A stretch of 64,000 bases of DNA from an uncultured Candidatus Saccharibacteria bacterium. GTDB taxonomy: Bacteria > Patescibacteriota > Minisyncoccia > Phycocordibacterales > DATDWN01. Below, in pieces: positions 8,018-58,836 of this stretch. The stretch covers positions 5,508-69,507 of the forward strand of contig CAZQVT010000002.1 in assembly GCA_964596875.1 (NCBI GenBank). The letters are read 5' to 3'. The translations under genes were made by a program, and so were the position numbers. Position 1 is the stretch's first letter. The number at the start of each line of letters is the position of its first letter. A model generated the notes under the pieces. The model made no database searches. It was not told where the DNA came from and saw only the letters and a program-made list of their open reading frames with translations.

Positions 8018-8296
8018 CTATCTAATGTCTACATTTTTAATAGCAGTCTCCTTCTCTATTTCATTTTTAATTTTCTCTTTAAAAATAAATATTTTATTTT
8101 TAGCTAGTGGAGAAATTTTTAACAATATTTGATTATTTCGCAACTCGAAATCCCCTACTTTTATACCAAGTCCTGTGTTTCTGTTTATTATTTCTACAAT
8201 AGTACTGTTTATTACTTCTCCTGAATTTAAGTTTTTTTTAATTTTTTCTAAGTATTTAGAGATATTTAACATAAATTTGTATTTAAAGACTTTCAA
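8018..8296 (-). CDS. Small protein, possibly DciA/DUF721-like
   Basis: 92 aa, located immediately downstream of dnaN. It has a weak DUF721-like pattern. The call rests on synteny. Confidence 0.35.
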   Translation of the reverse strand: MKVFKYKFMLNISKYLEKIKKNLNSGEVINSTIVEIINRNTGLGIKVGDFELRNNQILLKISPLAKNKIFIFKEKIKNEIEKETAIKNVDIR

Positions 8297-8307
8297 AAAA
8301 TTAGTTA

Positions 8308-8414
8308 AATTGCTTTAGATACTAGGTAATGAAGGGTTTTATGAGGGAGCCTTACATATAGTAAGGTGAGTGAAATAAAACTCTTCAGCAACAAAGTAGA
8401 TGAAGTAATTTTAC
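8308..8414. repeat. Type-C hairpin repeat, copy 1 (AAATTGCTTTAGATAC...GAGCCTTACatataGTAAGGTGAGTGA...CAACAAAGTAGATGAAGTAATTTTA)
   Basis: About 85% identical to 34125..34229. Both copies lie just 3' of a minus-strand gene (dnaN, rpsO). Confidence 0.8.
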
Positions 8415-8420
8415 TAATTT

Positions 8421-9521
8421 TTACTTGTTCATTGGCATAACCAGGTAAAGGAAGGACTTATCCGAAACACCCTGTATCACCATAGGCCTGTTTGTGTCTG
8501 AAAAAACCAAAGTAATACTGTCTGAATCTATAGACTGAAAACAGTCGGTTATGTATTTATAATTAAAACTAATATTCAAATCCTCCCCTTTTAAAACCGC
8601 GTCTATACTACTTGTATTTTCTCCAACATCTATATTTTTAGTTAAAATCTTAAACATTTTGTTTTTAGGAGAAATTTTAAAGGTAACCTGACTAAATTTG
8701 TCAGCAAAAATATTTGAGATTTTTAGAGAACTTACTAGGTCTTGTTTTAATACCGTAACTTCTGTTTTTATATCCTTAGGTATAATCTGTTTATAGTCAG
8801 GAAAAACACCGTCTATTACTCTAGAAGTTATATATACTTCACTGTATGAAAAAGCTATTTGATTTTCATCCAAATAAACAAAAATATCGTCCTTAGTGTC
8901 TTCTATAACTCTTATAATCTCCCCTATATTTTTAACTGGTATCAAAATCTGATTAAATTCCTTATGCTTTTTAACACCTATCCTTTTTTCACTTAGTCTA
9001 AATGAGTCAGTAGCAACAAAAACAACATCATCGTCTTCTGATAGTAATAAAACACTAGATAGTGTCGGTCTGATAGTTGAGTTTGAGGCACTATACATTA
9101 CAGACTTAAATCCTTTTATAAGATTTGGAGCGTTGAAAGTAAAAGGATTTTGGTTTGTTACTTTTGGTATGTTTGGGAAATCATCTATTGAGTATGATTT
9201 TATTATAGACTCAGAGTGATTTGTAGAGATTTTTAGGTTTCCTTCAACCTCTTCTAGGGTTACATTCTTATCATTTATTATGTTTGATATAAAACTGTAT
9301 AAAACACTTCCAGATACAGCGATTTTACCCGGCTTGTTTACCTTTACTGGTATACTTATCTCTATACCCAAATCAAGGTTAGTTGCTTTTATAGTAAGAG
9401 TGGAGCCTTGTGCCTCTAATAATACACAACTCAATATAGGTAGAGTTATATTTTTACCAGTTATTTTCTCTACCTTTCCAATAGCGTATGAAAGTTTGTC
9501 TTTAATGCATTCAATATTCAT
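8421..9521 (-). CDS. dnaN: DNA polymerase III beta sliding clamp
   Basis: 366 aa with a three-domain clamp layout, immediately downstream of dnaA. Confidence 0.93.
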   Translation of the reverse strand: MNIECIKDKLSYAIGKVEKITGKNITLPILSCVLLEAQGSTLTIKATNLDLGIEISIPVKVNKPGKIAVSGSVLYSFISNIINDKNVTLEEVEGNLKISTNHSESIIKSYSIDDFPNIPKVTNQNPFTFNAPNLIKGFKSVMYSASNSTIRPTLSSVLLLSEDDDVVFVATDSFRLSEKRIGVKKHKEFNQILIPVKNIGEIIRVIEDTKDDIFVYLDENQIAFSYSEVYITSRVIDGVFPDYKQIIPKDIKTEVTVLKQDLVSSLKISNIFADKFSQVTFKISPKNKMFKILTKNIDVGENTSSIDAVLKGEDLNISFNYKYITDCFQSIDSDSITLVFSDTNRPMVIQGVSDKSFLYLVMPMNK

Positions 9522-18049: not shown

Positions 18050-18060
18050 AAAAGTTTATA

Positions 18061-19195: not shown

Positions 19196-20071
19196 TTATT
19201 CAAGCGGTTCTCTGTACGGATCTTTCTGGTATTTTGTTTCTATTGGTTTAATACTCGGAGTAACACTATTTAGTTTACTTCCCACTATAGGGTTGCTGCT
19301 AGGTGCTGGAGTTTTGTATATTTCTTCTGTCGCGTATCTAGGAACGCCAATGCCCATGTTTGTATTCTGCTTCTGGTTGTCCAGAGCATCATTTTGGAAG
19401 GCAGGTTTTATCATTTCCTTCGGAATATTTAGTGTGGTGCTACCAAAGCTCATTGGTTCGTTTTTTACAACTGGTGCCATTTCTTGAGGAGTATCTACCA
19501 CCTTTTTTGTAGCAGGCATAACTGTACCCCTTTCAAATACTCTGTTTTCTAGTTCGTAAACAATTTGGTCAGCTAGTATGTTTGAGATGTTCAGGAGGTT
19601 TACCAAATCTGTTCCTGTAATTTTCTCCCCCAGGTTTCTGTCTATTACACTCATGACTTCATTTTCTAGAACAGTTGCCTGACTAGTGCTTAGTCCGTAT
19701 TTATTTACTATATCCCCAACACGTTTCTTAGAAGTAACAGGATCGATTTTTGTCTCAGTTTTGTTTTTATTTATAAGTTCTAAAATTGGATTTAAAATCC
19801 TTTCACCAACCTCTAAAGATATTTTTTCTGCATCTTCATGACTTAGGTGTGCTTCAGTTTCAAGATTGCCTATGTATTTTTCAGATGAGACTATTCCAAA
19901 AACCAATAAAACTGTTTCGTAAATAAAAGAATCTTCATCTTGGATAGTCTTATTTTCTTCGATTATTTTTCTAATACTTTCAAGCCACGGCGTGCTTTTG
20001 ATCGCAAAAACCATATCTTTCGGCAAAATTTTTATTCTTTCACTTAAAATTTTTTTAATTTCTTGTTCCAT
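19196..20071 (-). CDS. Hypothetical soluble protein of the T4SS-like operon (291 aa)
   Basis: No TM segment and no recognisable motif. Tightly packed in the operon. Confidence 0.5.
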   Translation of the reverse strand: MEQEIKKILSERIKILPKDMVFAIKSTPWLESIRKIIEENKTIQDEDSFIYETVLLVFGIVSSEKYIGNLETEAHLSHEDAEKISLEVGERILNPILELINKNKTETKIDPVTSKKRVGDIVNKYGLSTSQATVLENEVMSVIDRNLGEKITGTDLVNLLNISNILADQIVYELENRVFERGTVMPATKKVVDTPQEMAPVVKNEPMSFGSTTLNIPKEMIKPAFQNDALDNQKQNTNMGIGVPRYATEEIYKTPAPSSNPIVGSKLNSVTPSIKPIETKYQKDPYREPLE

Positions 20072-20075
20072 GTTT

Positions 20076-21986: not shown

Positions 21987-21993
21987 TTTTAAA

Positions 21994-23691
21994 TTACCTA
22001 AAGATTGCGCCAACTTGTCCATTTCCAGTTATGTTTCCTCTGCAAGTGTTGCTTGGGTTAAATACCGCACACGGACCTGTCCAGCCAACAAAGTTTCTAC
22101 CGATTGCTGGTGTCGCTGTTATGGATACTAAAGAGTCGACCGGATAAGGTTTGCTACATGTAGTTGTCGCTGGATTGGTTAGGTTTGAACACGTATCTAC
22201 TCCATCAGTTACAGAGCCTCCAGGAGAAACATCGATTGTAAGTGTGTATGTTGAGCCTGTTCCAGGTAGAGGTATTGGTGGGTTTGTTGCTGCACTTCCA
22301 GCTGGGTTTCTGTTACATGCGCATTCAACATTCCAAGTCCATCCACTACCTGCACCTGTGCCACCAACTGCACCTACCATAACGTCTACAACCATTCCAT
22401 TTCCAAAATCAAACTTATCCAGTCTTCTGTGAGGAATTACAAAAGCCCATGGGTATTGACCCTTTACTTCGCTTTCTGCAGAAGTCATGCCGGCATTTGT
22501 TAGAGGGTATTTGTTCAGTATTCCTAAAACAGTACCGCTATCTACTCTTGTACAGTCTACACTTGGGTTTGGAGTATACGCAGGACATGAACTTCCTCCA
22601 CTTCCCCCACTTCCAAGTGGCCACGGAGGTATTCCACCTATGTCAGCTGGAGTTGTCTCACAACTTACAGAACCTCCGGTTCCTCCAGTGTATGAGTCAA
22701 TTATTCCGTCACCGTCGGTATCAACACCCGTACCACTGTTTCCTCCATTTGAAGTACAAGTTAGTGTTGGTTGAGAAGCAGATGGTTGATAGTTTTGATA
22801 TGGTTGTGATTCTGCAGCAATCTGGTCAACAAGTGATGGTGAAGTGTTGTTTGCACCTGTTTTTTCACTTGCACCCATTAGACCACCTGCATTTCCAGCA
22901 ACCTGTTCAATAAGTTGAGAAACAAGCGCTGTAATAATCTCGTTAAACTCATCAGCAGAAACCAATTCTCCCCATTTTGTTCCCAGAGTATCTTTTATTT
23001 GGTCACTAATAACTCCACCAGGTGTAACAGTTTCTTCTTCTACAGAACAGATTGTCGCCTGTGATACTGGATCAACAAAGGTTTGTGCTCCTCTCGGGCA
23101 TCGTTTTAAACTCAAAAAACCTGCACCAAGGTCAATTTCTTTTTTCTTATTAGCTGCGTCACTGCCCACTATTATTGAAAGTTGATTTTTTGCTGCCAAA
23201 TAGGAGCCATAAGGGTTGTTTTCTGAATTTTGAGTAATTTCAAACCAACCCTGCCATCCTCCCTCTGTAAAATCCTGCGTAAACGCATCGTAGTTATTCT
23301 GTAGAATGCTTAAGGTACAAGAATAATTGTTATTGTCATCATTTATATAGTTTTTTGCTAGTGCAAGTCTAACTTCTGCCTTGAAAGGACTACAAAGTTT
23401 GTTTACTCCTGCTTGTGATAGAAACTGTGAGGCGATATTGTCCCCTGCATCTAGGAAAAATTTACCAGGGTCACTTATATAACCAGGATTTCCCTTAAAA
23501 CCGTTGTTTATCCAGTTTACGGTTTTTTGAGTAAGTTTTCTTGTAACTGTTTTGGCTGCGACATAGGCTATGGTATCCAAACCGTATTCCTTTAAAGCGT
23601 TTGAAATATCTACATATTGAGCATTAGTTTTTTCTGGGAAGGAAACAAGTAAAACTGAAAAGATTAAAAAGGATGCAAGTATTTTTTTCAT
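21994..23691 (-). CDS. Secreted 565-aa protein. It has a DTDGDGIID calcium-binding-like motif, Gly/Ser-rich linkers and a C-terminal beta-repeat domain (NFVGWTGPC).
   Basis: Signal peptide MKKILASFLIFSVLLVSFPEKTNA. The C-terminal GW-containing motif resembles Listeria-Bacteroides-type repeats. Confidence 0.55.
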   Translation of the reverse strand: MKKILASFLIFSVLLVSFPEKTNAQYVDISNALKEYGLDTIAYVAAKTVTRKLTQKTVNWINNGFKGNPGYISDPGKFFLDAGDNIASQFLSQAGVNKLCSPFKAEVRLALAKNYINDDNNNYSCTLSILQNNYDAFTQDFTEGGWQGWFEITQNSENNPYGSYLAAKNQLSIIVGSDAANKKKEIDLGAGFLSLKRCPRGAQTFVDPVSQATICSVEEETVTPGGVISDQIKDTLGTKWGELVSADEFNEIITALVSQLIEQVAGNAGGLMGASEKTGANNTSPSLVDQIAAESQPYQNYQPSASQPTLTCTSNGGNSGTGVDTDGDGIIDSYTGGTGGSVSCETTPADIGGIPPWPLGSGGSGGSSCPAYTPNPSVDCTRVDSGTVLGILNKYPLTNAGMTSAESEVKGQYPWAFVIPHRRLDKFDFGNGMVVDVMVGAVGGTGAGSGWTWNVECACNRNPAGSAATNPPIPLPGTGSTYTLTIDVSPGGSVTDGVDTCSNLTNPATTTCSKPYPVDSLVSITATPAIGRNFVGWTGPCAVFNPSNTCRGNITGNGQVGAIFR

Positions 23692-23775
23692 ATAGAAAAT
23701 AATTTATATATTACAAACAAATTATATCCTATTATGAAAAGTAAATCTCAATAATAAACTCAAATATGTTGAAAA

Positions 23776-24612
23776 CTAACGAAATTCGGTAACTGTTTTT
23801 TTGCTCAAGAATGCATTTAGGGTAGTAACTGCTTTTCCAAAGTTTTGCATGTTTGTAGTATAGTCCCCCACAACAGAGAAAACTTTTACCGGATCAGAAA
23901 CTGCAGAACGTATTGCCTCCAGGTTGCTTAGTATTTTTGATGAGGCGTTCAAAAGGTTTAGGTGCATGGGTATTGCGGCTTCAGGAACCTCCATTTCAAG
24001 TAGCGTTTTAATTGTGCTCTTGTTTATGACTATGAGAGGGTCTAGTTTTTTGAGTTCCTTTTCGTTATCAGACTGTAGGCCGTTTACTAGTATGGCCATA
24101 GGGTCAACTTTTACATCATAATATACAGAAATAAGCGCTTGGTTTATTTTTTGAGAGTAAGCATCGAAAGTTAACGGGTCATCTTTTTTAATGATTTTTA
24201 AGTTTTCTTTGATGTATACAACTGAATTTTGCTTGTAGTCAGGCAGTGAAAGTGTGTTGTCTACTATTTTTGAGGCCATTTGAGGAGTAAGTCCTTGTCC
24301 GTTTTTAGCTATTATTAGATACTGCGACAAAATATCTCGAGACATTTGGTCTGTTAGAGTGTTGTCCCCTTCTGAAATATTTACTGTTTTTGTCAGGTCG
24401 ATAACTTTTGAGTTTGCTTTGTTGCTGTCAGTTAGAATTTTTTTCCAGTCGTAGTCCGTGTTTTTTATAGCTATGGGATCTTCAGCAACCACCCCATCTT
24501 TTTTAGTGGGTGTTGTTTTTGAGAGACTTTTTTGTTTGTTATTTATAAACCAAACCGAAACAACCACACCAAAACATAGTATAAAAATAGTAAGAGTTTT
24601 GTTACTAGGCAT
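23776..24612 (-). CDS. N-terminally anchored extracytoplasmic protein (278 aa). It is the first gene of the operon and a possible VirB8-like component.
   Basis: Single N-terminal TM plus a 240-aa domain. The size and topology fit VirB8-like proteins, but there is no sequence motif. Confidence 0.45.
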   Translation of the reverse strand: MPSNKTLTIFILCFGVVVSVWFINNKQKSLSKTTPTKKDGVVAEDPIAIKNTDYDWKKILTDSNKANSKVIDLTKTVNISEGDNTLTDQMSRDILSQYLIIAKNGQGLTPQMASKIVDNTLSLPDYKQNSVVYIKENLKIIKKDDPLTFDAYSQKINQALISVYYDVKVDPMAILVNGLQSDNEKELKKLDPLIVINKSTIKTLLEMEVPEAAIPMHLNLLNASSKILSNLEAIRSAVSDPVKVFSVVGDYTTNMQNFGKAVTTLNAFLSKKTVTEFR

Positions 24613-29192: not shown

Positions 29193-30293
29193 TTGAGGCA
29201 CTCACAAGATCCTCATTTTAGGTCAGGTCTTAAAATCACTAGCACTTGGTTTCGAAAGAGCCTAAGTCAGGTGGGATCTACCAAAAATGTGGTGAAAATA
29301 CTCACTTTTTTAACCGTTAACCCGGCTCTGCTTTTGTCTTTGGTTTTTCCAATACAGGCGTCGGCTTGCGGTATTTTTGATATAAAGTCTTGCTTTACAA
29401 GTAGTTCGAAAGTAGAGGCTGAAGAGGTGGTAACTTCAAATTCACAAAACATAGCACTTCTTCAAGCTCCCCTTTCACCGTTTTCAAAAGCATCATCTAC
29501 AGATGATGATGGTTCAATAATAGATGACACATACATTACCTCAGAAGTTCAAACCGCGGATGAAACAAGAACTATAGATAACGAACAGATTAGTGTATAT
29601 GTGGTACACAGCGGGGATACTCTACCTGCTATTGCAAAAATGTTTGGTGTTACTACAAACACTATCAGATGGGGTAACGACTTGAAGACTGACAAACTAA
29701 CTCCTGGTCAAACTTTGGTTATCTTGCCTATTTCGGGAGTTCAACATAAAGTTAAGTCAGGTGAAACTATTCAAGGTATTACAAAAATGCATAAAGGTGA
29801 CCTGGACGAAGTTTTGCAGTACAACAACCTAACTAAATCATCAAAACTGGCTATTGGAGATATTATTGTTATCCCAGACGGAGAAATGGTTGCCGTTTCT
29901 GCTGGTACAAAGAAAACTACAAGTTCAACAAACTATTCTGGACCTGCATACAGCGGATACTATATGAGACCAATCGTGGGTGGTATAAAGACTCAGGGTG
30001 TTCATGGTCACAACGGTGTAGATCTGGCTTCTAGTTACGGTGCAAACATTTTAGCATCTGCGTCTGGTGAAGTTATTATTGCAAGAACAGGTTGGAATGG
30101 TGGATACGGTACATATGTGGTAATAAAACATGCAAATGGTACTCAGACTCTGTATGGACACCTAAGCGCTCTGTCAGTTTCTCCTGGAGATAGTGTTTAT
30201 CAGGGTCAGATAATAGGAAAAATGGGAAGTACTGGAAAGAGTACGGGTACTCATTTACATTTCGAGATTCGAGGCGCCCGCAATCCATTTTAA
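29193..30293 (+). CDS. Secreted peptidoglycan hydrolase with two LysM domains and a C-terminal M23 peptidase
   Basis: LysM domains YVVHSGDTLPAIAKMFGVT and HKVKSGETIQGITKMH. M23 motifs HGHNGVDLAS (HxxxD) and GTHLHFEI (HxH). The true start may be the GTG near 29290. Confidence 0.85.
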   Translation: MRHSQDPHFRSGLKITSTWFRKSLSQVGSTKNVVKILTFLTVNPALLLSLVFPIQASACGIFDIKSCFTSSSKVEAEEVVTSNSQNIALLQAPLSPFSKASSTDDDGSIIDDTYITSEVQTADETRTIDNEQISVYVVHSGDTLPAIAKMFGVTTNTIRWGNDLKTDKLTPGQTLVILPISGVQHKVKSGETIQGITKMHKGDLDEVLQYNNLTKSSKLAIGDIIVIPDGEMVAVSAGTKKTTSSTNYSGPAYSGYYMRPIVGGIKTQGVHGHNGVDLASSYGANILASASGEVIIARTGWNGGYGTYVVIKHANGTQTLYGHLSALSVSPGDSVYQGQIIGKMGSTGKSTGTHLHFEIRGARNPF

Positions 30294-30422
30294 AACTTCC
30301 TAATTTGGCGAACTCCTCGTTCTCGTGTTTAAAAATGTTCGTCACCTTACGACTTGTAAGGCTCTTCTCATTTCTAAACTCTCAACATCGGATTTCATCC
30401 AAATTTCGAAAGTTTAATATTT
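30294..30422. repeat. Type-A hairpin repeat, copy 1
   Basis: AACTTCCTAATTTGGCGAACTCC...CTCGTCACCTTACgacttGTAAGGCTC...CTCTCAACATCGGATTTCATCCAAATTTCGAAAGTTTAAT. It starts immediately after the stop codon of the M23 gene. Confidence 0.8.
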
Positions 30423-31958
30423 CTTAGGCCTGTACTGTAGAGCTTCTAGGATGTGTCTTTCTTCGATCTCCTTACTTTCGTCTAAGTCTGCTATAGTTCT
30501 AGCAAGTTTTATGATACGGTGGTAAGAACGTGCGGATAGATCTAGTTTTTTGGCAGATTCGTTCAGAAGATTTTTGAGGTTCTCTGATATTTTTACAGTA
30601 TTTACCAAATCCTTTGAAGAAAGTTCGGCGTTTGTTTTTATTTTTAGGTCCTTGAATCTGTTTTCTTGTATTTGTCTTGCAGTTTCTACTCTCGGTTTTA
30701 TTTTTTCTGTACCTTCATGTTTGTCCCTTCCCTCAGTTAGTTTTTCGTACTCTACTTTTGAAACTTCCACCCACATGTCGATCCTGTCCATTATCGGTCC
30801 AGAAAGTTTTCGTTTGTATTTTTCTATTGCGATAGCAGAACAAACGCATTCCTTACCTTTTGTTCCCAGGTTACCGCATGGACAAGGGTTCATAGTGGCA
30901 ATTAGTATAAAATGTGCCGGATACCTAACACTTCCTTTTGCTCGAGATATTGTAACTACTCTGTCTTCTAGAGGTTGTCTCAAGCTTTCCAAAACTTTTT
31001 TATCAAACTCTGGAAACTCATCCATAAAAAGTACACCTTTGTGCGCCAAAGTCACTTCTCCAGGTTTTAAATTGCTTCCTCCACCAACAAGAGAAACATA
31101 CGATGCGGTATGATGCGGAGATCTAAACGGAGGTTCGCTGATAAGGTCGTCCAAAAGCATTCCGCCTATAGAATATATAGAAGTAACTTCTAGTTTTTCA
31201 TCAAAAGAAAGACTTGGAAGCAAATGTGAAAATGCTTTAGCAAGCATCGTTTTACCAGTGCCTGGTGGTCCGTACATTATTATGTTGTGCCCACCAGCGG
31301 CAGCAATCTCTAGTCCCCTTTTCGCTGACTCCTGACCCTTGATATCAGAAAAATCCACCTCTACTTCTTTTGTTATATTTTCTTTTTCCTTTCGAACATG
31401 AAGTTCGATTTTTTCAGAAGTAAAATTTTCATCAGGAATTACTTTAGTGTTTATGTGTTTTACAACTTCTAGCAAACTACCAGCGCCGTAAATTTCTAAG
31501 CCCTCTATGTTGCTTGCCTCATCTGCGTTTTCTTTTGGTAAAAATATTTCTTTGAAACCTTCCTTTTTTGCTTTTTGAACTATTGGGAGAACACCTTTTA
31601 CTGAACGAAGTTTTCCATCCAATGATAGTTCACCAATAAAAAGTCTGTTTTCTGTTTCTGCCTGTATTTCTTCACTAGCAATAAGGTATGCAAGTGCAAT
31701 AGGTAGGTCAAAAATAGGACCCTCCTTTTTTATGTCAGCAGGAGCGAGAGACACCACTATCTTTTGGTTTTTGTTTTTAGGAGACTTCCATCCAGAGTTT
31801 TTTATTGCAGAAGAAACTCTATCTTTTGCTTCATCTACCGACTTATCTCCCAGTCCTACTATAGAAAAAGAGTGGAGCCCTCGAGAGAGATCCACCTCCA
31901 ATTCTATTATTTGGGCTGAAAGTAGTGTTGCTTGAGCTGAAAAGATTTTAGCTACCAT
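30414..31958 (-). CDS. comM: YifB/ComM-family Mg-chelatase-like AAA+ ATPase
   Basis: N-terminal Lon-like domain plus AAA+ Walker A GPPGTGKTMLA. Confidence 0.88.
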   Translation of the reverse strand: MVAKIFSAQATLLSAQIIELEVDLSRGLHSFSIVGLGDKSVDEAKDRVSSAIKNSGWKSPKNKNQKIVVSLAPADIKKEGPIFDLPIALAYLIASEEIQAETENRLFIGELSLDGKLRSVKGVLPIVQKAKKEGFKEIFLPKENADEASNIEGLEIYGAGSLLEVVKHINTKVIPDENFTSEKIELHVRKEKENITKEVEVDFSDIKGQESAKRGLEIAAAGGHNIIMYGPPGTGKTMLAKAFSHLLPSLSFDEKLEVTSIYSIGGMLLDDLISEPPFRSPHHTASYVSLVGGGSNLKPGEVTLAHKGVLFMDEFPEFDKKVLESLRQPLEDRVVTISRAKGSVRYPAHFILIATMNPCPCGNLGTKGKECVCSAIAIEKYKRKLSGPIMDRIDMWVEVSKVEYEKLTEGRDKHEGTEKIKPRVETARQIQENRFKDLKIKTNAELSSKDLVNTVKISENLKNLLNESAKKLDLSARSYHRIIKLARTIADLDESKEIEERHILEALQYRPKKY

Positions 31959-34023: not shown

Positions 34024-34124
34024 TTAAATATAAAAATTAACTAATAAAATAAAATATTAAAATAAAGTAAACCCATAAATAAGTATACACTATTAAAAAT
34101 AACAATACTTACAATAAGTAAATT

Positions 34125-34229
34125 AAATTGCTTTAGATACGAGGCGTATGAGTTTTTGAGAACGAGCCTTACATGTAGTAAGGTGAGTGAGCAAAAATGA
34201 AATACAACAAAGTAGATGAAGTAATTTTA
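34125..34229. repeat. Type-C hairpin repeat, copy 2
   Basis: About 85% identical to 8308..8414. Hairpin CCTTACatgtaGTAAGG. Lies directly 3' of rpsO. Confidence 0.8.
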
Positions 34230-34230
34230 T

Positions 34231-34497
34231 TTACTTCTTAAGACCAAGTTTCTTAGTAAGAGAGTTGTATCTCTTAGGATTTTTCTTCTCCAAATACTTC
34301 ATGTGAGTCTTTCTAGTAGCAACCATTTGTAGTAGACCACGTCTTGAATGGTTATCCTTAGCGTTTTTCTTAAGGTGGCTTGCCAACTCGTCAATTCTTT
34401 TACTCAAAATAGCGATCTGTACCTCTGGAGAACCAGTGTCAGTTGCATGAACTTGTACTTCTTTGACGATTTTTGTTTTCTTTGTCTTTGTAAGCAT
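34231..34497 (-). CDS. rpsO: 30S ribosomal protein S15
   Basis: 88 aa containing HSRRGLLQMV. Confidence 0.95.
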   Translation of the reverse strand: MLTKTKKTKIVKEVQVHATDTGSPEVQIAILSKRIDELASHLKKNAKDNHSRRGLLQMVATRKTHMKYLEKKNPKRYNSLTKKLGLKK

Positions 34498-34682
34498 TGT
34501 TCCAATAAGATATCACATAATATAGCCATTTGCAAGTCCTAAAACACCCCCTTTTCACTACCCCAATTTGTACCCTAAAAAATATTTTGCGACCACATTT
34601 AGTGTCGTAAAATATTTTTAGGTTATGCGACAAGTAATCTTGTTGTATAACCTATATTGTGCGACATGGTATAATCTTAAAT

Positions 34683-35630
34683 ATGGCTTCGCTAAAACAA
34701 CTTAAACAGCAATTTTTAGAATATATTGAAATAGAAAGAGGCAGATCTTTAAAAACTGTTGAAAATTATGATCACTACATAGGTCGTTTTCTGGAGTTTA
34801 CTAAGAATGACAACCCTGGGAATATAACTGACCAGTCTGTAAGGGAGTTTAGACTGTGGTTGAACAGACAAACTACAGGAGATAAGAGAAAACCAAACGA
34901 AACTTTGTCTAAAAAAACTCAGAATTATTACCTTATTGCCCTAAGGGCGTTCCTAAAATACCTTGCTCGTCAGGAAGTAAAGTCATTGCCTGCAGAAAGG
35001 ATAGAGTTGGCCAAAGTCGGCGAAAGGTCACTAGATCTAATAACTGAAACTGAACTTGGAAGACTTTTAGACTCACCACAAGGTAGCGACATAAAAGATT
35101 TGCGTGACAGAGCAATACTAGAACTGCTTTTTTCAACTGGTCTGCGTGTTTCTGAACTTTGTGCACTTACGGCAGATATAGATCTAAACTCTGATGAACT
35201 TTCTGTTAGAGGAAAAGGAGGTAAGGTTAGAGTGGTTTTTCTATCTGATACAGCAAAAAAGGCAGTTAGGGACTATTTAACAAAGCGAAAAGACTTCAAC
35301 GAGGCACTTTTTGTTCAGTCTGGTGTAGAAGTTAGAAAAAAGAAGGAAGATAAAGACAAAAAAAATAAAAATACTCTTGAAACCGGTGCATTAACGAAAA
35401 GATCCATAGAGAGAATAGTAAAGCAACATGCTATAAAGGCGGGTATCTCAAAAAAAGTTACTCCCCACACCATTCGTCACCTATTTGCTACAGGGCTTCT
35501 TTCAAACGGAGCAGATATTCGTTCTGTACAGGCTATGCTGGGTCACTCTAGTATTATCACTACACAGATTTATACACACGTTACTGACAAACATTTACGC
35601 GATACCCACAAAAAATTTCATAAAAGATAG
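34683..35630 (+). CDS. Tyrosine recombinase XerC/XerD family
   Basis: C-terminal HTIRHLFATGLLSNGADIRSVQAMLGHSSIITTQIYTHV with the RHRY catalytic tetrad. The start is at MASLKQ. An extended -10 (TGgTATAAT) lies at about 34668. Confidence 0.88.
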   Translation: MASLKQLKQQFLEYIEIERGRSLKTVENYDHYIGRFLEFTKNDNPGNITDQSVREFRLWLNRQTTGDKRKPNETLSKKTQNYYLIALRAFLKYLARQEVKSLPAERIELAKVGERSLDLITETELGRLLDSPQGSDIKDLRDRAILELLFSTGLRVSELCALTADIDLNSDELSVRGKGGKVRVVFLSDTAKKAVRDYLTKRKDFNEALFVQSGVEVRKKKEDKDKKNKNTLETGALTKRSIERIVKQHAIKAGISKKVTPHTIRHLFATGLLSNGADIRSVQAMLGHSSIITTQIYTHVTDKHLRDTHKKFHKR

Positions 35631-35780
35631 CAAAACTAACTCATCTGCGTTGTTGGACTTCGATAAAATATTTCTCACCTTATTTTAATAAGGCTCGAAT
35701 TATTTTACTCGTCCGCCTAGCATCTAAGTCAGTTTTGCTATCTTTTATTTGAAATTTTGGTTTTATGTTATATTTTATTT

Positions 35781-36575: not shown

Positions 36576-36947
36576 AAATAGTTTTCCACAGTTTTGGTAG
36601 GTGTGTCCTTTACACATTTTTCTAAAAGACTTAAACTAATTAAGGAAACGCAATTAGAGTGTCCGATATGATAAACCCCGTACCGTGCACGACATTTGTA
36701 ATTTTGTTCTTTGTCGCGCGCCCATTTTGGGAGTCGGCCGACTCCCCTCTTAGAAGACCACTTGGTTTCCAATCAAGACGTAGGTGTAAACGAACCCTCA
36801 CTATCTACTTATTTTTTGGAGTTCAGTTACAACATCTAACTTCACGGATGCTGCGTGGGTCTTCTCCACAAACCGCTCAATGAATAGTGCCCGTAATTCC
36901 AACCTACGGACCCTGCTTATTGGGCGGTTTTTTAATTGTTCAAACCA

Positions 36948-37052
36948 TAGATTTTGCCAATCTCATCTTCTAAATTTTAAAAATGCTCGTCACCTTACTA
37001 AGTGTAAGGCTTCTCTCATTTTAAAAATTTATAAGCGACCTTGTCTAAAATC
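36948..37052. repeat. Type-B hairpin repeat, copy 1
   Basis: TTTTGCCAATCTCATCTTCTAAATTTTAAAAATGCTCGTCACCTTACtaagtGTAAGGCTTCTCTCATTTTAAAAATTT...AGCGACCTTGTCTAAAATC. It has an outer AT-rich stem and an inner hairpin. Confidence 0.75.
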
Positions 37053-37064
37053 TTCGGTTTGAAT

Positions 37065-38534
37065 TTATTTTACTTTGTGAGATGAGCGGATTTTCTTTAT
37101 TTCCTCTTCATCTGCTTCCTCCTTAGACATTTTTCCTGCCTCTCCTAGTTGTTTTAACTCATTTTCGGGAAGTTTTATTAGTTCAATAGCTTTATTTTCC
37201 AAATATTCCTCAGTATTTTTAGTTGGGTCCTCCAAAACTTCCTCTAAAAGTGTATGCAAAACAAAACCAATTTTTGGTCCTGGAGTAATTTTTGTAATTC
37301 CCATAATTTTTTTACCATCAATCTTAAGCATTGAGACAGAAATTGGGTCACGAAGTGCTTCTTCAATCATTGAATGATATTTTCGGAGACGGTATGGGTC
37401 TTCTTTGGGTCTACCAGCCCCTATACGGTCGCATATGCGTAGATTCATCAAATCCCAGATATTCTCCCGTCCAACATTTACGATCATTCTACGGACCGCT
37501 GAGAGGCTAATTTGCTCTGTGTCAGAAAAAAACATATGCCAGCGAATCATAGACACAACTTTTTCAATAATTTTCGTTGGATATTTTAATTTTTCAAGAA
37601 TTTTTTTAGTTTTTCTTGCTCCAAGCACTTCGTGACCAAAAAAAGTCCATTGTTTATTCTTTCCCCCACCCCTTCTTGTTTCCGGTTTTGAAATATCATG
37701 AAAAAGTGCTGAAAGCCTTATCTCTAGAGGGTATTCTTTATCAGCAGAGTGCTGTAGTGACCTAAGTAAATGCTCCCAAACGTCATAAGCGTGTATTCCT
37801 CCTTGCTCTACCCCAATAGTTTCTTCAAGTTCAGGAACAACATGTTTCAAAATCCCCAACTTTCTCATAGTAACTAAGCCATACATTGGTTTTTTTGACA
37901 TTACTATCTTTGAAAATTCATCTCTTATTCTCTCCTTGGATATTTTTTCGAGTAAATTAACGTTTTCTACTATCGCCTTCTCTGTTTCGGGGGCAATTTC
38001 AAAATCCAACTCAGTACTAAGTCGCACTGCTCTCATTATTCTCAAGCCATCCTCCCGAAATCTTAGTTCAGCCTCCCCCACTGTTCTGATCACCTTGTCT
38101 TTTATATCTTGTTCTCCGTTGTAAAGGTCAATAATCCTCTTTTCAGAGACATTATATGCTAGTGAGTTAACCGTTAAGTCCCTTCTTTTAAGATCATCCT
38201 CTATTTTTTGGCTAAAAATAACAGTATCTGGGTGACGATTATCAGAATACTCCCCTTCTAGTCTATATGGAGTCACTTCTACAACTCTTAATGACTCATT
38301 TTCTGTCTCAACCTTAACACCAACTGTTCCAAACGTGTTTTCATAGAATGATTCAGGGAAAATTTTAATAATTTCCTCTGGGGTGGCATTTGTAGTGATA
38401 TCCCAGTCCTTTGGTTCCCTACCTATAACCATGTCTCGTACACATCCACCAACCAAAAAAGCCTCAAAACCTGCATTTTCGAGGGATTGAGTTAATTCTA
38501 CTACTTCTTTTGGTATAGAGAATTCTTTATTCAT
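37065..38534 (-). CDS. cca: CCA-adding tRNA nucleotidyltransferase with an HD domain
   Basis: PolB-type NTase motif LVGGCVRDMVIGREPKDWDITT, plus an HD domain. Confidence 0.88.
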   Translation of the reverse strand: MNKEFSIPKEVVELTQSLENAGFEAFLVGGCVRDMVIGREPKDWDITTNATPEEIIKIFPESFYENTFGTVGVKVETENESLRVVEVTPYRLEGEYSDNRHPDTVIFSQKIEDDLKRRDLTVNSLAYNVSEKRIIDLYNGEQDIKDKVIRTVGEAELRFREDGLRIMRAVRLSTELDFEIAPETEKAIVENVNLLEKISKERIRDEFSKIVMSKKPMYGLVTMRKLGILKHVVPELEETIGVEQGGIHAYDVWEHLLRSLQHSADKEYPLEIRLSALFHDISKPETRRGGGKNKQWTFFGHEVLGARKTKKILEKLKYPTKIIEKVVSMIRWHMFFSDTEQISLSAVRRMIVNVGRENIWDLMNLRICDRIGAGRPKEDPYRLRKYHSMIEEALRDPISVSMLKIDGKKIMGITKITPGPKIGFVLHTLLEEVLEDPTKNTEEYLENKAIELIKLPENELKQLGEAGKMSKEEADEEEIKKIRSSHKVK

Positions 38535-40697: not shown

Positions 40698-41009
40698 ATG
40701 GTTTTTATAAAAAATAAAGAAAATTTTGTATGTGAAAAATGCGGCTTTGAGGTAGAAGGGGATGGTTTTACAAACCATTGTCCAGAGTGTTTGTGGTCAA
40801 AGCATGTAGATATTTCTCCTGGCGACAGACTAAATATCTGTGGGGGACTAATGGAACCAATACAAATACTGAAAAAGGGAAGAGAGTATTCTATTTTACA
40901 CAAATGTACAAAGTGTGGGTTTGAAAAACCTAATAAGGCAAGTATGAATGATAATTTCCAAATTATTGTCCAAGTTTCTGCATCTGGCCAATCTCATCGT
41001 CTAAAATAA
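40698..41009 (+). CDS. RNHCP-domain zinc-ribbon protein
   Basis: CEKCG...TNHCPECLWSKHVD...CTKCG. The last 8 codons and the stop codon lie inside the type-B repeat. Confidence 0.6.
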   Translation: MVFIKNKENFVCEKCGFEVEGDGFTNHCPECLWSKHVDISPGDRLNICGGLMEPIQILKKGREYSILHKCTKCGFEKPNKASMNDNFQIIVQVSASGQSHRLK

Positions 41010-41086
41010 TAAATAAAATTCTCAATGTACTAATTTGTACACCTCCAATTTTATTTATTATTTCATACGCGACCTTGTCTCAGATC
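40986..41086. repeat. Type-B hairpin repeat, copy 2
   Basis: GGCCAATCTCATCGTCTAAAATAA, then a perfect 18-bp AT-rich outer inverted repeat (AAAATAATAAATAAAATT / AATTTTATTTATTATTTT) enclosing TGTACtaatttGTACA, then ACGCGACCTTGTCTCAGAT. Confidence 0.8.
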
Positions 41087-41106
41087 CAGAAACTTTGTTA
41101 AAGGTT

Positions 41107-47130: not shown

Positions 47131-47305
47131 ATGAAAATGAGTCTATATTATTCGCCTTATTTTAGCAAATAATTTTTTAGAAAGCTTAAATTTGAGACAA
47201 GATTGCGGATAAAACAAAAACTGAACCCGGAGGTGTACATTTAGTACATTGAGGATTCAGTTTTTATTTTTAGCCGATAAGGTTGGCCAAATTTGAGCTT
47301 TTTAA

Positions 47306-52365: not shown

Positions 52366-52495
52366 TATAGAACTTCCAAAACTGGCGAATTTCTTGTTTC
52401 GTTTTTGAAAATTCTCGTCAGTGTACTAAATGTACACCTCCTCATATTTCCAAACTCTCAACGTCGGATTTCATCCAGTTTGTGAAAGTTTAATG
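52366..52495. repeat. Type-A hairpin repeat, copy 2
   Basis: AACTTCCAAAACTGGCGAATTTCTTGTTTCG...CTCGTCAGTGTACtaaatGTACACCTCCTCA...CTCTCAACGTCGGATTTCATCCAGTTTGTGAAAGTTTAATG. It starts right after the pilB stop codon. Confidence 0.8.
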
Positions 52496-53428: not shown

Positions 53429-54640
53429 ATGTTGTTTCATTACAAAATTTTAAATAAAGAGGGAAAGGTGGTGGAGGGGAATATGGAAGCAAAAGATAAA
53501 TTTGCTCTATATCATACTATTAAACAAGACGGTGCCACTGTAGTTTCTGCTGAAGAAGTAAAAGATAAAAAAGAATATAACATTCCTATACTTTCAGCGA
53601 TGTTTGAAGGTGTAAAAACTCGTGACAAAATCACTTTTGCAAAAAACTTGGCAAAAATGACAGAGGCTGGTCTACCAATAACACGTGCACTTTCTATTTT
53701 GGAAAGACAGGCAAAGGGCCAGTTCAAAAAAATACTAGTTGGTCTTCAGGATTCACTAAACAAAGGAGATACTCTAAGTGATGCGATGAAAGTGTATCCA
53801 AAAGTTTTTTCTACACTTTTTATATCTATGGTAAAAGCAGGTGAAGAGTCTGGAAACCTAGCACAATCTCTACAGAACGTTGGTATGCAAATGGAAAAGT
53901 CATATCTTCTCACTAAAAAAATCCGGGGAGCGATGATGTATCCTGCAGTTATTTTCTCACTCATGATAGTTATTGGAGTTTTGATGATGGTTTACATGGT
54001 GCCAACACTTACAGCAACATTTATTGGTCTTGGTATAAAACTTCCTCTGTCTACGCGTATTATTATTTGGATAAGTAACTTCCTAAAATCAAACTTTATA
54101 TACGTTATATTGGGAACTATTGGTTCAATATTTCTTTTCATTACAGGTTACAGAACACAAAAAGGCCAACGTATTGCGGACTATGTCTTCTTGCATCTGC
54201 CAGTAATAAAGGAGATTGTAAAACAAATAAACTCTGCTCGTACCGCCAGAACTTTATCCTCACTCATTTCTTCTGGAGTTGATATCGTTTTGGCGATAGG
54301 AATTACAAAAGAAGTTATACAAAACTCATATTATAAAACTGTATTGCAAGAAATACAGGAGGTGATTCAAAAAGGAGAGCCAATATCTGCTGTATTTACT
54401 GCAAATCCAAAACTTTATCCTCTTTTTGTGGGAGAAATGGTTTCTGTGGGTGAAGAGACGGGTAAAATCGGTGAAATGCTTATGGGTGTAGCGACATACT
54501 ATGAAGAAGAAGTGGATCAGAAGACAAAAGATATGTCTTCAATCATTGAGCCGATTCTGATGATATTTATTGGTGCAGCGGTGGGATTTTTCGCACTGAG
54601 TATGCTAGGTCCGACTTATTCACTCGCCGACGCACTGTAG
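53429..54640 (+). CDS. pilC: Type IV pilus inner-membrane platform protein PilC (GspF family)
   Basis: Two GspF repeats and 3 TM segments. Confidence 0.9.
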   Translation: MLFHYKILNKEGKVVEGNMEAKDKFALYHTIKQDGATVVSAEEVKDKKEYNIPILSAMFEGVKTRDKITFAKNLAKMTEAGLPITRALSILERQAKGQFKKILVGLQDSLNKGDTLSDAMKVYPKVFSTLFISMVKAGEESGNLAQSLQNVGMQMEKSYLLTKKIRGAMMYPAVIFSLMIVIGVLMMVYMVPTLTATFIGLGIKLPLSTRIIIWISNFLKSNFIYVILGTIGSIFLFITGYRTQKGQRIADYVFLHLPVIKEIVKQINSARTARTLSSLISSGVDIVLAIGITKEVIQNSYYKTVLQEIQEVIQKGEPISAVFTANPKLYPLFVGEMVSVGEETGKIGEMLMGVATYYEEEVDQKTKDMSSIIEPILMIFIGAAVGFFALSMLGPTYSLADAL

Positions 54641-54760
54641 AAATTCCAAATTTGGCGAATTCCTTGTTTCGGTTTTGAAAATTCTCGGCGATGTACTATT
54701 TGTACACCTTCTCGGATTTTCAAAACCTCAACTACGGACTTCACTCAAATTTTAAATTTC
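54641..54760. repeat. Type-A hairpin repeat, copy 3
   Basis: AAATTCCAAATTTGGCGAATTCCTTGTTTCGG...CTCGGCGATGTACtatttGTACACCTTCTC. It lies between the pilC stop codon and the pilin gene start. Confidence 0.8.
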
Positions 54761-54765
54761 TAAGA

Positions 54766-57196: not shown

Positions 57197-58653
57197 TGAA
57201 AAACAAAAAAATATCACAACGAGGCAGTTTGATGATACAGGCACTAGTTTTCGGTTCCATTTCTGTTGTTCTTATAGGTGCACTTATTAGTTGGGCTGCT
57301 GTAAACATTAAGTCCGGTAAACTTTCAATAAAAAGAGAACAAGCATTACAAATAGCAGAGGCGGGAATAGATTACTATAGATGGCATTTGGCACATGCTG
57401 CTACAGATTATCAGGATGGTACAGGTGTAGCGGGCCCATATGTGCACGACTTTTTCGATAAAGACGGAGTAAAAATCGGAGAATATTCTCTAGAGATTAC
57501 ACCACCACCTACAGGTTTTACTTTGGTAAAAATAAAATCAACAGGAAAACTTTTGTCAGACCCAACAGTAACTAGAACAATACAGACAGGTCTAGCGATA
57601 CCTTCACTTGCAAAATATGCTATTGCCTCAAACAGTGACATTCGTTTTGGAGAGGGAACAGAAGTTTTTGGTCCTATACATTCAAACGGTGGTATACGTT
57701 TTGATGGTCTAGCACACAACTTGGTTACAAGTTCAAGAACATCCTACGATGATCCTGACCACACAGGAGGTTCAGAATATGGTGTTCATACACACTTGAA
57801 CATTCCTCCAACTAGCACAAATGATACCTTTCGTGCTGCAGAGGCACCGAATGCTACTTTAGCAAACAGAGCCGACGTATTTATGGCGGGTAGACAGTTT
57901 CCAGTTCCGGCTATCGACTTTCTAGGATTTACAACTGACCTTGCGACTATAAAAACAAACGCTCAGGCAAGTGGAAGATATTTTGGAGCATCTGGTGCTT
58001 TGGGTTATAGAGTCTTATTTAAAACAGATGACACTTTTGATTTGTACAGAGTAAACAATATTACTGCAACACCAAACAACTGTAGTGAAACTACAACCGG
58101 TTGGGGAACATGGAGTATTAGAACAACAAACGGTTCTCAAACTTTTATAGCAAACTACGCTATACCTGCAAACGGACTTATCTTTGTGGAGGACAATGTT
58201 TGGGCAGAGGGGCAAATAAATAGTGCCAGAGTAACTTTGGCTGCAGGAAAGTTTCCAGACAATGCTGCAACTAGACCTAATATAATGATAAATAATAATC
58301 TTTTGTATACAAACTATGATGGTCAGGATGTTATTTCGCTTATTTCACAGGGAAATATAAACGCAGGGCTTTCGAGTGCAAGTACTATGCGTGTGGACGC
58401 TGCTTTGGTTGCACAAAATGGTCGCGTAGGTAGATATCACTATTCTTCAAACTGTGGAACTGGCTATCAGAGAACAAAAATTACACTATATGGAATGATC
58501 GCAAGTAACCAAAGATACGGTTTTGCCTATACAGACGATACTGGCTATGCAGAAAGAGACATTATATATGATGCAAACTTGTTGTATGGTCCGCCGCCTA
58601 GTTTCCCGCTGACCGGCGATCAGTATCAGATAGTCTTCTGGCAAGAACTGTAA
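57196..58653 (+). CDS. PilX-N-like pilus assembly / minor pilin-like protein
   Basis: QRGSLMIQALVFGSISVVLIGAL is a PilX_N-type hydrophobic N-terminus with Q at +5. It is followed by a 450-aa extracellular domain. Confidence 0.55.
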   Translation: MKNKKISQRGSLMIQALVFGSISVVLIGALISWAAVNIKSGKLSIKREQALQIAEAGIDYYRWHLAHAATDYQDGTGVAGPYVHDFFDKDGVKIGEYSLEITPPPTGFTLVKIKSTGKLLSDPTVTRTIQTGLAIPSLAKYAIASNSDIRFGEGTEVFGPIHSNGGIRFDGLAHNLVTSSRTSYDDPDHTGGSEYGVHTHLNIPPTSTNDTFRAAEAPNATLANRADVFMAGRQFPVPAIDFLGFTTDLATIKTNAQASGRYFGASGALGYRVLFKTDDTFDLYRVNNITATPNNCSETTTGWGTWSIRTTNGSQTFIANYAIPANGLIFVEDNVWAEGQINSARVTLAAGKFPDNAATRPNIMINNNLLYTNYDGQDVISLISQGNINAGLSSASTMRVDAALVAQNGRVGRYHYSSNCGTGYQRTKITLYGMIASNQRYGFAYTDDTGYAERDIIYDANLLYGPPPSFPLTGDQYQIVFWQEL

Positions 58654-58763
58654 AACTTCCAAATTTGGCCAATCTCATCGTCTAAAATAAAACCCGGCTC
58701 GTCAATGTACCGTAAGTACACCTCCGATCCGGTTTTTATTTTATACGCGATCTTGTCTCAAAT
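58654..58763. repeat. Type-B hairpin repeat, copy 3
   Basis: AACTTCCAAATTTGGCCAATCTCATCGTCTAAAATAAAACCCGGCTCGTCAATGTACcgtaaGTACACCTCCGATCCGGTTTTTATTTTATACGCGATCTTGTCTCAAAT. Confidence 0.8.
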
Positions 58764-58836
58764 TATAAAAGTTCTACCACATCGGCGTATATTGGATTTT
58801 CGTATACAAAACAATAATTTGGTACAATATTGCCAT

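Follow-up and report, generated by a model that had tools for sequence, protein, structure and literature searches.

Stop-codon-associated palindromic repeats in a Parcubacteria/Paceibacteria genome: a probable family of ERIC-like miniature elements

Ten copies of a palindromic repeat were found in the window, the whole 64-kb stretch of DNA that was analysed, and they are probably a non-autonomous, ERIC-like MITE in a Parcubacteria/Paceibacteria (CPR) genome. The assignment to this group, with Zambryskibacteria nearby, is based on PilB homologues. The copies are small, non-coding and dispersed, they carry terminal inverted repeats and they show insertion polymorphism, as is characteristic of MITEs. 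An earlier note on this DNA had considered a lineage-specific MITE/REP-like element. Small non-coding palindromes, terminal inverted repeats, TA ends and strain polymorphism agree with this description, but its restriction to one lineage has to be given up because long rods with this apex are found in many phyla.

Each copy spans 123-129 bp, and the window holds about one per 6 kb (Table 1). For their detection, a covariance model (R1) was built from the six type A/B window copies and four orthologues from relatives. The eight copies listed in the earlier note are all present at their places. A covariance-model search, as proposed there, was carried out with R1, which scores its own six A/B members at 102-131 bits and also recovers the two listed type C copies, which lie outside the model, on the predicted strand (35.5 and 31.8 bits). 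Two further copies were added to the list by R1, at 47174-47307(-) with 81 bits and at 35617-35751(+) with 49.6 bits. A second, cross-phylum covariance model built without ERIC (R2) returned the same ten copies in the window and no others. Repeat finding in the window also groups the copies together, and the 5' box AACTTCCAAATTTGGCSAAT has 4 matches with at most 3 mismatches in the window, compared to 0.01 expected. Further copies are present in every related locus searched. Pairwise identity among the window copies is 46-81%, the best pair reaching 81%, which gives no indication that the family expanded recently in this genome. The copies occupy about 2% of the 64-kb window and about 19% of its intergenic DNA. 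Coding sequence accounts for about 89.5% of the window, and all of its genes end with TAA or TAG only.

Table 1. Copies of the repeat in the window with their model scores and neighbouring genes. Gene names marked putative were read by eye from the translation.
Copy	Type	Position	Strand	Evidence	Gene context
1	C	8296..8423	-	R1 35.5 bits, R2 71.5 bits, fold	Rod begins within the TAA stop of dnaN (8421-9521, -; Pfam)
2	A (locus of the earlier note)	30291..30418	+	R1 125.4 bits	5' end holds the TAA stop of an M23/LysM peptidase gene (29193-30293, +; Pfam); 3' end holds the stop of a convergent Mg-chelatase-like gene (30414-31958, -; Pfam)
3	C	34112..34236	-	R1 31.8 bits, R2 76.7 bits	Directly 3' of the stop of an 88-aa ORF (34231-34497, -; putative ribosomal protein S15, rpsO); upstream of an NYN-domain gene
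4	C-like, new	35620..35748	+	R1 49.6 bits, R2 63.3 bits, fold; near-perfect terminal inverted repeats of about 18 bp	A 323-aa ORF (34659-35630; putative XerC/D-type recombinase) ends within the 5' arm, which holds its final 3 codons and its TAG stop
5	B	36940..37062	+	R1 108.6 bits	365-nt structured non-coding stretch upstream, no co-oriented gene; adjoins the stop of a convergent ORF (37065-38534, -; putative CCA-adding enzyme)
6	B	40972..41095	+	R1 102.1 bits; 17-bp perfect AT-rich inner stem	Supplies the final ~9 codons and the stop of an RNHCP gene (40698-41009; Pfam); end of a convergent trypsin-like gene 12 nt past the rod
7	B, new	47177..47305	-	R1 81 bits, R2 67.2 bits	Follows a 127-aa gene that ends with TAG (47306-47689, -); the trigger-factor start lies 44 nt downstream
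8	A	52368..52493	+	R1 129.3 bits	2 nt past the TAG stop of pilB (50611-52365)
9	A	54638..54762	+	R1 130.7 bits	Begins with the TAG stop of pilC (53429-54640)
10	B	58650..58777	+	R1 124.4 bits	Begins at the TAA that ends a 485-aa gene (57196-58653); the promoter-like TGGTACAAT box of tpiA lies downstream

The copies stand in a fixed register to stop codons. In nine of the ten window copies, the stop of a co-oriented upstream gene lies in or abuts the 5' terminal repeat, these genes being dnaN, the M23 peptidase gene, the 88-aa ORF, the 323-aa ORF, the RNHCP gene, the 127-aa ORF, pilB, pilC and the 485-aa ORF. The earlier note placed the copy listed at 36948 after a plus-strand gene as well, but this copy has no co-oriented gene upstream and adjoins only the stop of the convergent minus-strand gene 37065-38534. 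When the window and the related loci are combined, 47 distinct copies are available, and in 41 of them a same-strand ORF of at least 60 codons ends at match offset 0-8 (mode 6), with TAA in 23, TAG in 17 and TGA in 1 case. Due to this fixed register, the stop codon is effectively part of the 5' repeat (TAG/TAA-AACTT ... AAGTT-YTA). The orientation is biased as well, with the C-rich strand being the sense strand of the abutting upstream ORF in 41/47 copies. In three window copies, contact with the stop of a convergent gene is seen as well, and at 30291-30418 both convergent genes terminate within the two terminal repeats. Downstream, the copies occupy the slot between the stop codon and the -10-like box of the next gene. 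TAG is the stop codon of 4/9 element-bearing window genes compared to 9/47, where the numbers are small.

At some of these sites the element reaches into the coding sequence. The RNHCP protein ends with ...VQVSASGQSHRLK in the window and with ...VQVSSNPKRK in a relative without the element. This contrast confirms that the repeat supplies the C-terminus, as had been claimed for the copy at 40986, and the tail of ORF 34659-35630 is likewise derived from the element.

Several simple readings were considered and rejected. The replication strand does not account for the orientation since both orientations occur to the left of the GC-skew minimum at about 50 kb; the orientation of the copies follows the gene and not the presumed replichore. 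A reading of CACCTCC/GGAGGTG as an SD/anti-SD pair was discarded because only 2/43 window genes have an SD-like upstream motif. Rod-shaped palindromes that follow stops in a fixed orientation also recall integron attC sites, and one copy overlaps the 3' end of the putative XerC/D-like ORF. That the repeats are attC or Xer-type sites, or resemble each other by chance as ordinary terminator hairpins do, is nevertheless extremely improbable. End-to-end alignment of the copies gives 60-130 bits, and full-length alignments effectively refute chance; the possibility that copies share nothing beyond the hairpin, against which the earlier note had measured its own claim, does not apply here. The flanks are syntenic housekeeping genes (dnaN, pilB, pilC, tpiA), no GTTRRRY/RYYYAAC core sites are visible, no integron-integrase was found among the Pfam-scanned window ORFs, and ten sites in 64 kb are incompatible with a single dif-type site.

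Evidence for mobility was obtained from relatives, whose pilB loci at 85-100% PilB identity were searched with R1 and R2. The site between pilB and pilC is filled in L127, L129 and L131, with a gap of about 220 bp, as well as in L138 and in the window, where gaps of 672 bp and 1063 bp, respectively, both contain the element. The same site is empty in L003, L006 and L137 (3-bp gap) and in L128 and L130 (66-bp gap). Downstream of pilC, the site is occupied in most relatives and empty only in L128, L137 and L138. The sites at pgk, rny, tig and the 127-aa gene are occupied in some genomes and empty in others, and at the last of these L003 and L006 carry only the 5' box together with a canonical terminator. 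L128 to L131 encode an identical PilB protein yet differ at two sites, and other sites vary among relatives whose PilB identity is 85-96%. Copies of differing subtypes (72% identity) are found upstream of tpiA in strains that share the same PilB, and one of these copies is 87% identical to the pilB copy of the window. Since presence, absence and subtype differ at the same sites in genomes with identical PilB, the elements are mobile, and the differing subtypes at the tpiA site indicate that copies are not only gained and lost but also replaced. The earlier note had asked whether copies are polymorphic between strains or fixed; they are present in some and absent from other strains with an identical PilB protein. 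The occupation of some sites throughout the 94-100% PilB range could also reflect retention at the level of the host.

Empty and filled sites can be compared at two junctions, written here with slashes at the boundaries. At the first, the empty site reads gaaTA/ATTTTGTTAAC and the filled site gaaTA/G...TTTT/TA/ATTTGTGTTAAC. At the second, the empty site reads TA/GAAC and the filled site TA/GAATTTCC...GAAAATTC/TA/GAAGAAC. In these comparisons TA is found at both ends of the element, and the junctions are consistent with a possible TA target-site duplication. However, the TA also belongs to the inverted repeat and to the stop codon. Between pilB and pilC, the inserted segment runs about 28 nt past the 3' inverted repeat.

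Each copy folds as one imperfect hairpin about 115-125 nt long, and the z-scores against shuffled sequences range from -3.1 to -7.6. Because every copy folds from end to end, the element is a full palindrome and not an inner hairpin with an optional outer stem. The hairpin described in the earlier note is real, but the whole element of 123-129 bp forms one rod with terminal inverted repeats. Between these repeats, the rod has a middle stem that is AT-rich and variable, and its apex is a conserved hairpin. In types A and B the terminal inverted repeats read TAR-AACTTCCAAATTTGG ... CCAAATTnnGAAAGTTY-TA, with TAGAAATTCC...AAATTTCTA at 54638-54762 as an example. The apical stems have 5-7 bp and a 5-nt loop, and a CGTC/CCTC tag lies 5' of the hairpin on the C-rich strand. 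TGTAC/GTACA is the dominant stem, with CCTTAC/GTAAGG, CGTAC/GTACG and CCTTAT/ATAAGG as further variants. Two details had been described differently: the heptamer CTCGTCA, thought to precede the hairpin in all copies, is exact in only 3/8 listed copies (52366, 58654, 36948), the others carrying TTCGTCA, CTCGGCG, TTCTCA or CACTCA instead, and the "perfect 18-bp stem" at 40986 has 17 bp.

The proposed compensatory nature of the stem substitutions is borne out by an alignment of 43 distinct copies. Here, 93.3% of the cells pair, compared to 74.7% in shuffled alignments, and with slid partners the share is 31-49%. Double changes occur in 22/25 pairs, and the covariation score is 0.515 versus 0.172.

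The two strands of the rod are not equivalent. The complement of the upstream mRNA folds better in 47/47 copies, by 14 kcal/mol on average (Wilcoxon p = 2e-9), and across these 47 copies G·U pairs number 204 on the better-folding strand versus 48 on the other. On the G-rich strand, the consensus structure has 121 G·U cells versus 18 A·C cells, the latter being those that would be G·U on the sense strand. The pair that closes the apical stem is G·U in 40/43 copies and in both stem types. The sense strand is C-rich and G-poor, the G-rich strand containing 1285 G versus 801 C. A pairing optimum on the non-mRNA strand is not predicted by a pure DNA transposon model.

Better pairing on the complement of the mRNA argues against a simple sense-strand terminator or stabiliser. 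This bears on the second possibility raised in the earlier note, a structured RNA of the 3'UTR acting as terminator or stabiliser, of which the slot between stop codon and next promoter stands, while the missing U-tract and the better pairing on the strand complementary to the upstream mRNA speak against it. In its more general form, this explanation assumes a host-selected, cis-acting sense RNA of the 3'UTR or intercistronic region, functioning as a terminator, a candidate Rho-loading site or a stabiliser or destabiliser, with mobility being secondary or historical. It would account for the exact placement of the copies between the stop and the -10-like box of the next gene, for their nearly invariant orientation to the upstream gene, for the compensatory change that keeps the pairing and for the occupation of two sites across the 94-100% PilB range. 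The C-rich sense strand is also in line with it, as is the slot after the 127-aa gene in L003 and L006, which holds the 5' box and a canonical terminator. Nevertheless, we consider it unlikely. No copy has a U-tract, a terminator scan of 46000-61500 flags none of them, and canonical terminators of unrelated sequence are used elsewhere, for example at 60739-60771. For the same reasons a generic intrinsic terminator was rejected, and the repeat is not simply the generic terminator consensus of this organism, the finding that the earlier note had named as contrary to its claim. Furthermore, the sense strand pairs worse in all 47 copies, presence and absence vary with an identical PilB, distant relatives lack the "conserved" sites, and the same head is found on an ordinary intergenic MITE of another phylum that lies mostly off stop codons.

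The strand asymmetry could alternatively mean that the G-rich strand is the functional one, either as an antisense sRNA against the 3' end of the upstream gene or as an ssDNA hairpin for a strand-specific (REP/RAYT- or IS200/IS605-like) enzyme. The greater stability of this strand in 47/47 copies, its excess of G·U cells (121 versus 18) and the G·U closing the apical stem, kept in 40/43 copies across stem types, are what such a function would lead one to expect. There are also precedents: the Rfam family V_AS5 (RF02818) matches the G-rich strand of the E. coli ERIC with 46 bits, and AS5, from which this family was derived, is a northern-positive 133-nt RNA of V. cholerae antisense to VC1225 (PMC2665243). 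For the hairpin version, CGTC-tagged REPs with CCTC variants, 4-5-nt loops and stop-adjacent positions are described (PMC3733652). However, no conserved promoter for the G-rich strand is found, several copies belong to tight runs of same-strand genes in which the next start follows after 15-45 nt, and no RAYT/Y1 transposase was found among the Pfam-scanned window ORFs. The apical stems have 5-7 bp compared to 8-9 bp in the CGTC REPs (PMC3733652), long terminal inverted repeats with TA ends better suit DDE-type MITEs, and the orientation tracks the gene and not the replichore. A function of the G-rich strand is therefore rather improbable as the main explanation.

For the preferred explanation as an ERIC-like MITE, a possible course of events can be outlined. 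A DDE transposase of the IS630/Tc1-like kind, which duplicates TA and would be encoded elsewhere, may move the copies in trans. An insertion into the TA of a stop codon would be tolerated since the first base of the element, G or A, rebuilds TAG or TAA, and in a compact genome with about 10% intergenic DNA and only TAA and TAG as stops, few other TA sites would be harmless. Copies at such sites would then be co-transcribed with the upstream gene. The orientation bias may reflect a filter acting at the RNA level, as reported for ERIC in Yersinia. With the G-rich strand as sense, a far more stable rod would form straight after the stop, whereas the C-rich strand would give a weaker rod whose base could be opened by the terminating ribosome. 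Such a ribosome-opened rod could modulate the decay or the termination of the upstream transcript. The Pfam scan of window ORFs detected neither a transposase nor a RAYT gene, and the retrieved loci yielded no full-length parent element when they were searched for long elements with the ends of a Bdellovibrionota MITE.

That MITE was found through the apex of the repeat, here called the head, which is not confined to CPR bacteria. Scanning the pattern TCANTGTACNNNNNGTACACCTYC in one genome per species gave at least 117 loci. Many of these are in CPR genomes, but long rods tipped by the apex were also found in at least 12 other phyla. The groups with rods include, among the matches listed, Treponema (Spirochaetota), Clostridia, Bacillota, Eubacterium, Acidobacteriota (64% G+C), Aminicenantes, Rokubacteria, Methylomirabilia, Burkholderiales, Legionellaceae, Desulfuromonadales and Planctomycetota. 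At least 40 pairs enclose the apex in about 27 of the 40 matches examined, usually above every flank shuffle, and an alignment centred on the apex places the arm motifs at a fixed register across phyla. Several of the rods from other phyla follow the stops of the housekeeping genes gyrB, ftsW and fusA in the same orientation, and the Treponema rod lies in frame within an Eco57I/MmeI-type gene. A Bdellovibrionota MAG contains about 40 near-identical copies of a 183-bp MITE with the same head and with ends that differ from those in the window, (C/T)TAGGGCG...CGCCCTA(G/A). These copies are mostly not at stop codons, which suggests that filtering after insertion, and not targeting by the head, accounts for the residence at stops. 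An inherent preference of the head for stop codons is not supported, since the young Bdellovibrionota copies lie mostly elsewhere. Carriage by phages was rejected, with 4 pattern matches in the viral collection, 2 of them weak rods.

These observations allow a broader proposal, which is tentative and which we regard as doubtful in its full extent. The repeats of the window, ERIC and the rods of at least a dozen phyla would be one ancient, horizontally spread superfamily whose conserved head on the G-rich strand serves as an RNA or ssDNA module bound by a conserved factor. Its members may include CPR groups, Bdellovibrionota, Spirochaetota, Clostridia, Acidobacteriota, Rokubacteria, Planctomycetota and Burkholderiales. 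The conserved part may then be the head and not the transposase-binding ends. On the G-rich strand, this head may be described as GAG-[G·U-closed 5-7-bp stem]-UGA with the register-fixed arm motifs AGG(C/A) and RAC(A/G)A(A/C)G. If this is true, recognition of the head by a factor would explain both the spread of the family and the orientation-specific residence at stop codons.

A mobile palindrome with turnover between near-identical strains indicates that selfish or co-opted repeats thrive even in the tiny, dense genomes of CPR/Patescibacteria. Its copies can be used as strain-level markers for these uncultured organisms. The stop register in a stretch of genome with only TAA and TAG stops provides a simple model of how TA-targeting elements colonise compact genomes without gene damage. 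For genome annotation, it is relevant that gene callers make ORFs too long or too short at the elements, as in the tails of RNHCP and of ORF 34659-35630, and give false N-termini at 54691 and 58705. Should ERIC and the rods of other phyla indeed be linked to the window repeats, ERIC would be one branch of a pan-bacterial family that has a conserved structured head, and not an enterobacterial curiosity. This would reopen the questions of what mobilises ERIC and what the ERIC RNA does, now with comparative data across phyla.

Comparison with known families was carried out at several levels. With Rfam 15 in gathering mode, only four tRNAs pass in the whole window, and nothing relevant was found at E<=5 for three copies or at E<=1 for eight rods from other phyla. 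A literature search returned nothing relevant on MITEs in CPR, on this apex sequence or on ERIC-like elements across phyla. REP/BIME elements and the CGTC-tagged REPs resemble the window repeats in lying at most 20 bp from gene 3' ends, with termini that can supply the stop (PMC3733652). The CGTC-tagged REPs are also found in the gaps between same-direction and between convergent genes and share the CGTC/CCTC tag and a 4-5-nt loop (PMC3733652). However, REPs measure 20-40 bp, have 8-9-bp stems and often form dimers (PMC3733652), whereas the comparable hairpin in the window is the tip of a 125-bp rod that has terminal repeats of its own. The Y1_Tnp domain expected for REPs was not detected among the Pfam-scanned window ORFs. 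Likened by description, Rickettsia palindromic elements (RPE) are also palindromes of a reduced genome that can enter coding sequences, but they are mostly internal in-frame insertions, compared to positions at or after stops in the window.

Correia/NEMIS, RUP, Nezha and further TA-flanked bacterial MITEs are, like the repeats of the window, small and non-coding and have terminal inverted repeats (PMC2229807, PMC3184786, PMC10969869). They also share transcripts with long hairpins, co-transcription and strain polymorphism (PMC2229807, PMC3184786, PMC10969869). In contrast to the window family, they show no sequence similarity to it, are lineage-restricted and are without the stop register. Several families of the Correia/NEMIS/RUP/Nezha type have an identified parent IS, and none was found for the window family.

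Among known families, ERIC (enterobacterial repetitive intergenic consensus, also called IRU or RU-1) comes closest to the window repeats. ERIC is a MITE of about 127 bp with terminal inverted repeats and TA termini that is co-transcribed with its neighbours (PMC2229807, PMC3184786, PMC10969869). In Yersinia, its effect on the upstream mRNA through RNase E depends on orientation and is sensitive to ribosomes (PMC2229807, PMC3184786, PMC10969869). Our comparison with E. coli is based on one copy, at ybhI, which was retrieved with the ERIC core. This copy begins 5 nt past the ybhI stop with the C-rich strand as sense, and it folds at -40.0 kcal/mol compared to -56.8 kcal/mol for its complement, with a G·U-closed apical stem. 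De Gregorio 2005 is said to describe one shared orientation for the stop-proximal ERICs of Yersinia.

ERIC differs from the window repeats in its hosts, which are Enterobacteriaceae and Vibrionaceae as opposed to CPR bacteria, and in its density of about 9 copies per E. coli genome compared to about one per 6 kb in the window. The remaining 44-bp ERIC core (CCCCAG/CTGGGG) is absent from the window copies, in which the TGTAC/GTACA apex dominates. At the level of model scores, R1 gives the E. coli ERIC 9.1 bits, while R2 ranks it top in a 50-kb E. coli stretch (100 kb search space) with 13.5 bits and an E-value of about 1. V_AS5, which models the Vibrio copy, scores the E. coli ERIC at 46 bits and has no match in the window or in the rods of other phyla. 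Homology to ERIC as judged from these scores, which lie below significance (9.1-13.5 bits, E about 1), is inconclusive. In form, the two agree in several respects: the length is about 127 bp compared to 123-129 bp, each is an imperfect palindrome over its entire length that has terminal inverted repeats and TA termini, both lie at or overlap stops in one preferred orientation, and in both the complement folds better by about 15 kcal/mol. In addition, ERIC and the CCTTAC type of the window share the 17-nt apex GTCA-[C]CTTAC-loop-GTAAG[G]-CTC, and the arm motifs AAGGCG and AACGCAG are found in both at the same distance from the apex.

The pilB-proximal repeat, which follows the TAG stop codon of pilB, is separated from pilC by about 0.9 kb (window 52494-53428); in some relatives, a spacer of just 3 bp is found at this place. 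This interval contains a 165-aa ORF without a Pfam match and a GC-rich inverted repeat (see table). The corresponding gap in the related locus L138 measures 672 bp and is unlike that of the window. The repeat may be a marker of a hotspot for further insertions. Elsewhere in the window, 365 nt on the plus strand (36580-36945) contain no credible ORF and end in GGGCGGTTTTTT. The structure of this stretch exceeds that of shuffled sequences (z -3.8), and no Rfam match was found for it at E<=1. A non-coding RNA that has escaped annotation is a possible identity.

Downstream of the 127-aa gene in two related pilB-region loci (L003:5739-5834 and L006:6343-6435), the repeat is reduced to its 5' box (AAAATTCCAAATTTAG / AACTTCCAAATTTGGCTGAT), which is followed by a canonical hairpin and a T-run. 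This remnant looks like a decayed copy of the repeat, with an ordinary terminator either taking its place or fused to it. The site downstream of rny is occupied by a repeat of the window type in L003, L127 and L138, and in L006 by a different inverted-repeat sequence of about 120 bp (ATACGAATGG...CCATTCGTA; L006:1545-1745), possibly representing a second palindromic family.

The cumulative GC skew of the window reaches its minimum at approximately 50-52 kb, where gene orientation also flips (about 50.5 kb) from the minus strand (nusA) to the plus strand (pilB). About 40 kb from this minimum, at 8.4-11.1 kb, the minus strand carries dnaN and an adjoining ORF (9733-11073), presumably dnaA. The replication origin may not be situated beside dnaA. 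A run of minus-strand genes (12436-24612), most of which lack a Pfam match, forms a cluster of type IV secretion-like or conjugation-like character and includes the ATPase and the PrgI-family protein listed in the table.

The 56 inferred genes of the window end with TAA (43) or TAG (13) and never with TGA. Since TGA was counted as a stop during ORF calling, in-frame TGA is likewise absent from these genes. Among the element-associated stops in related loci, one of 41 is TGA. This lineage may hardly use UGA; could this be due to a loss of RF2? Within the 25 nt upstream of the start codons, a Shine-Dalgarno-like motif was present in just two of 43 genes, and many of the 43 have a -10-like box (TGnTAtAAT/TACAAT) at most about 25 nt from the start codon. 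Together, these two features suggest leaderless or very-short-leader mRNAs, with each gene having its own promoter.

Features located in the window and in E. coli
Feature	Locus	Position	Strand	Remark
TraG/VirB4-like P-loop ATPase	window	16238-18049	-	in run 12436-24612
PrgI-family protein	window	18724-19161	-	in run 12436-24612
165-aa ORF	window	52609-53106		visibly G+C-richer
Inverted repeat cgcccgcggg...cccgcgggcg	window	~53113-53142		follows 165-aa ORF
E. coli ERIC element	L126	359-482		ybhI-ybhJ spacer

The E. coli ERIC element gives a match of 46 bits, below the gathering score, to V_AS5 ('Vibrio RNA AS5', antisense) of Rfam, and from this match the family appears to model an ERIC-type repeat.

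The apical module of the window's repeats recurs in other bacteria. In the Bdellovibrionota MAG ABC2.93 (JAWKNZ01; loci L009-L125), it is shared by a 183-bp MITE that has the ends (C/T)TAGGGCGTGTTGACG...CGTCAACACGCCCTA(G/A) and is present in about 40 nearly identical copies; no parent IS of this MITE was found within the loci examined. Another apex-bearing rod adjoins a 23S rRNA gene in Nomurabacteria (L040:1-2887). Group I introns have been reported from CPR rRNA genes, and the two group I intron matches in this gene (E 1.3e-5 and 0.17) are both below the gathering score. In Treponema (L057:6755-6877 and L065:1066-1188), a rod of 123 nt bearing the same apex is embedded in frame in a restriction-modification gene of the Eco57I/MmeI type (666 aa). 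It separates the N-terminal domain from the methylase domain and resembles the coding insertions of the Rickettsia palindromic element (RPE).
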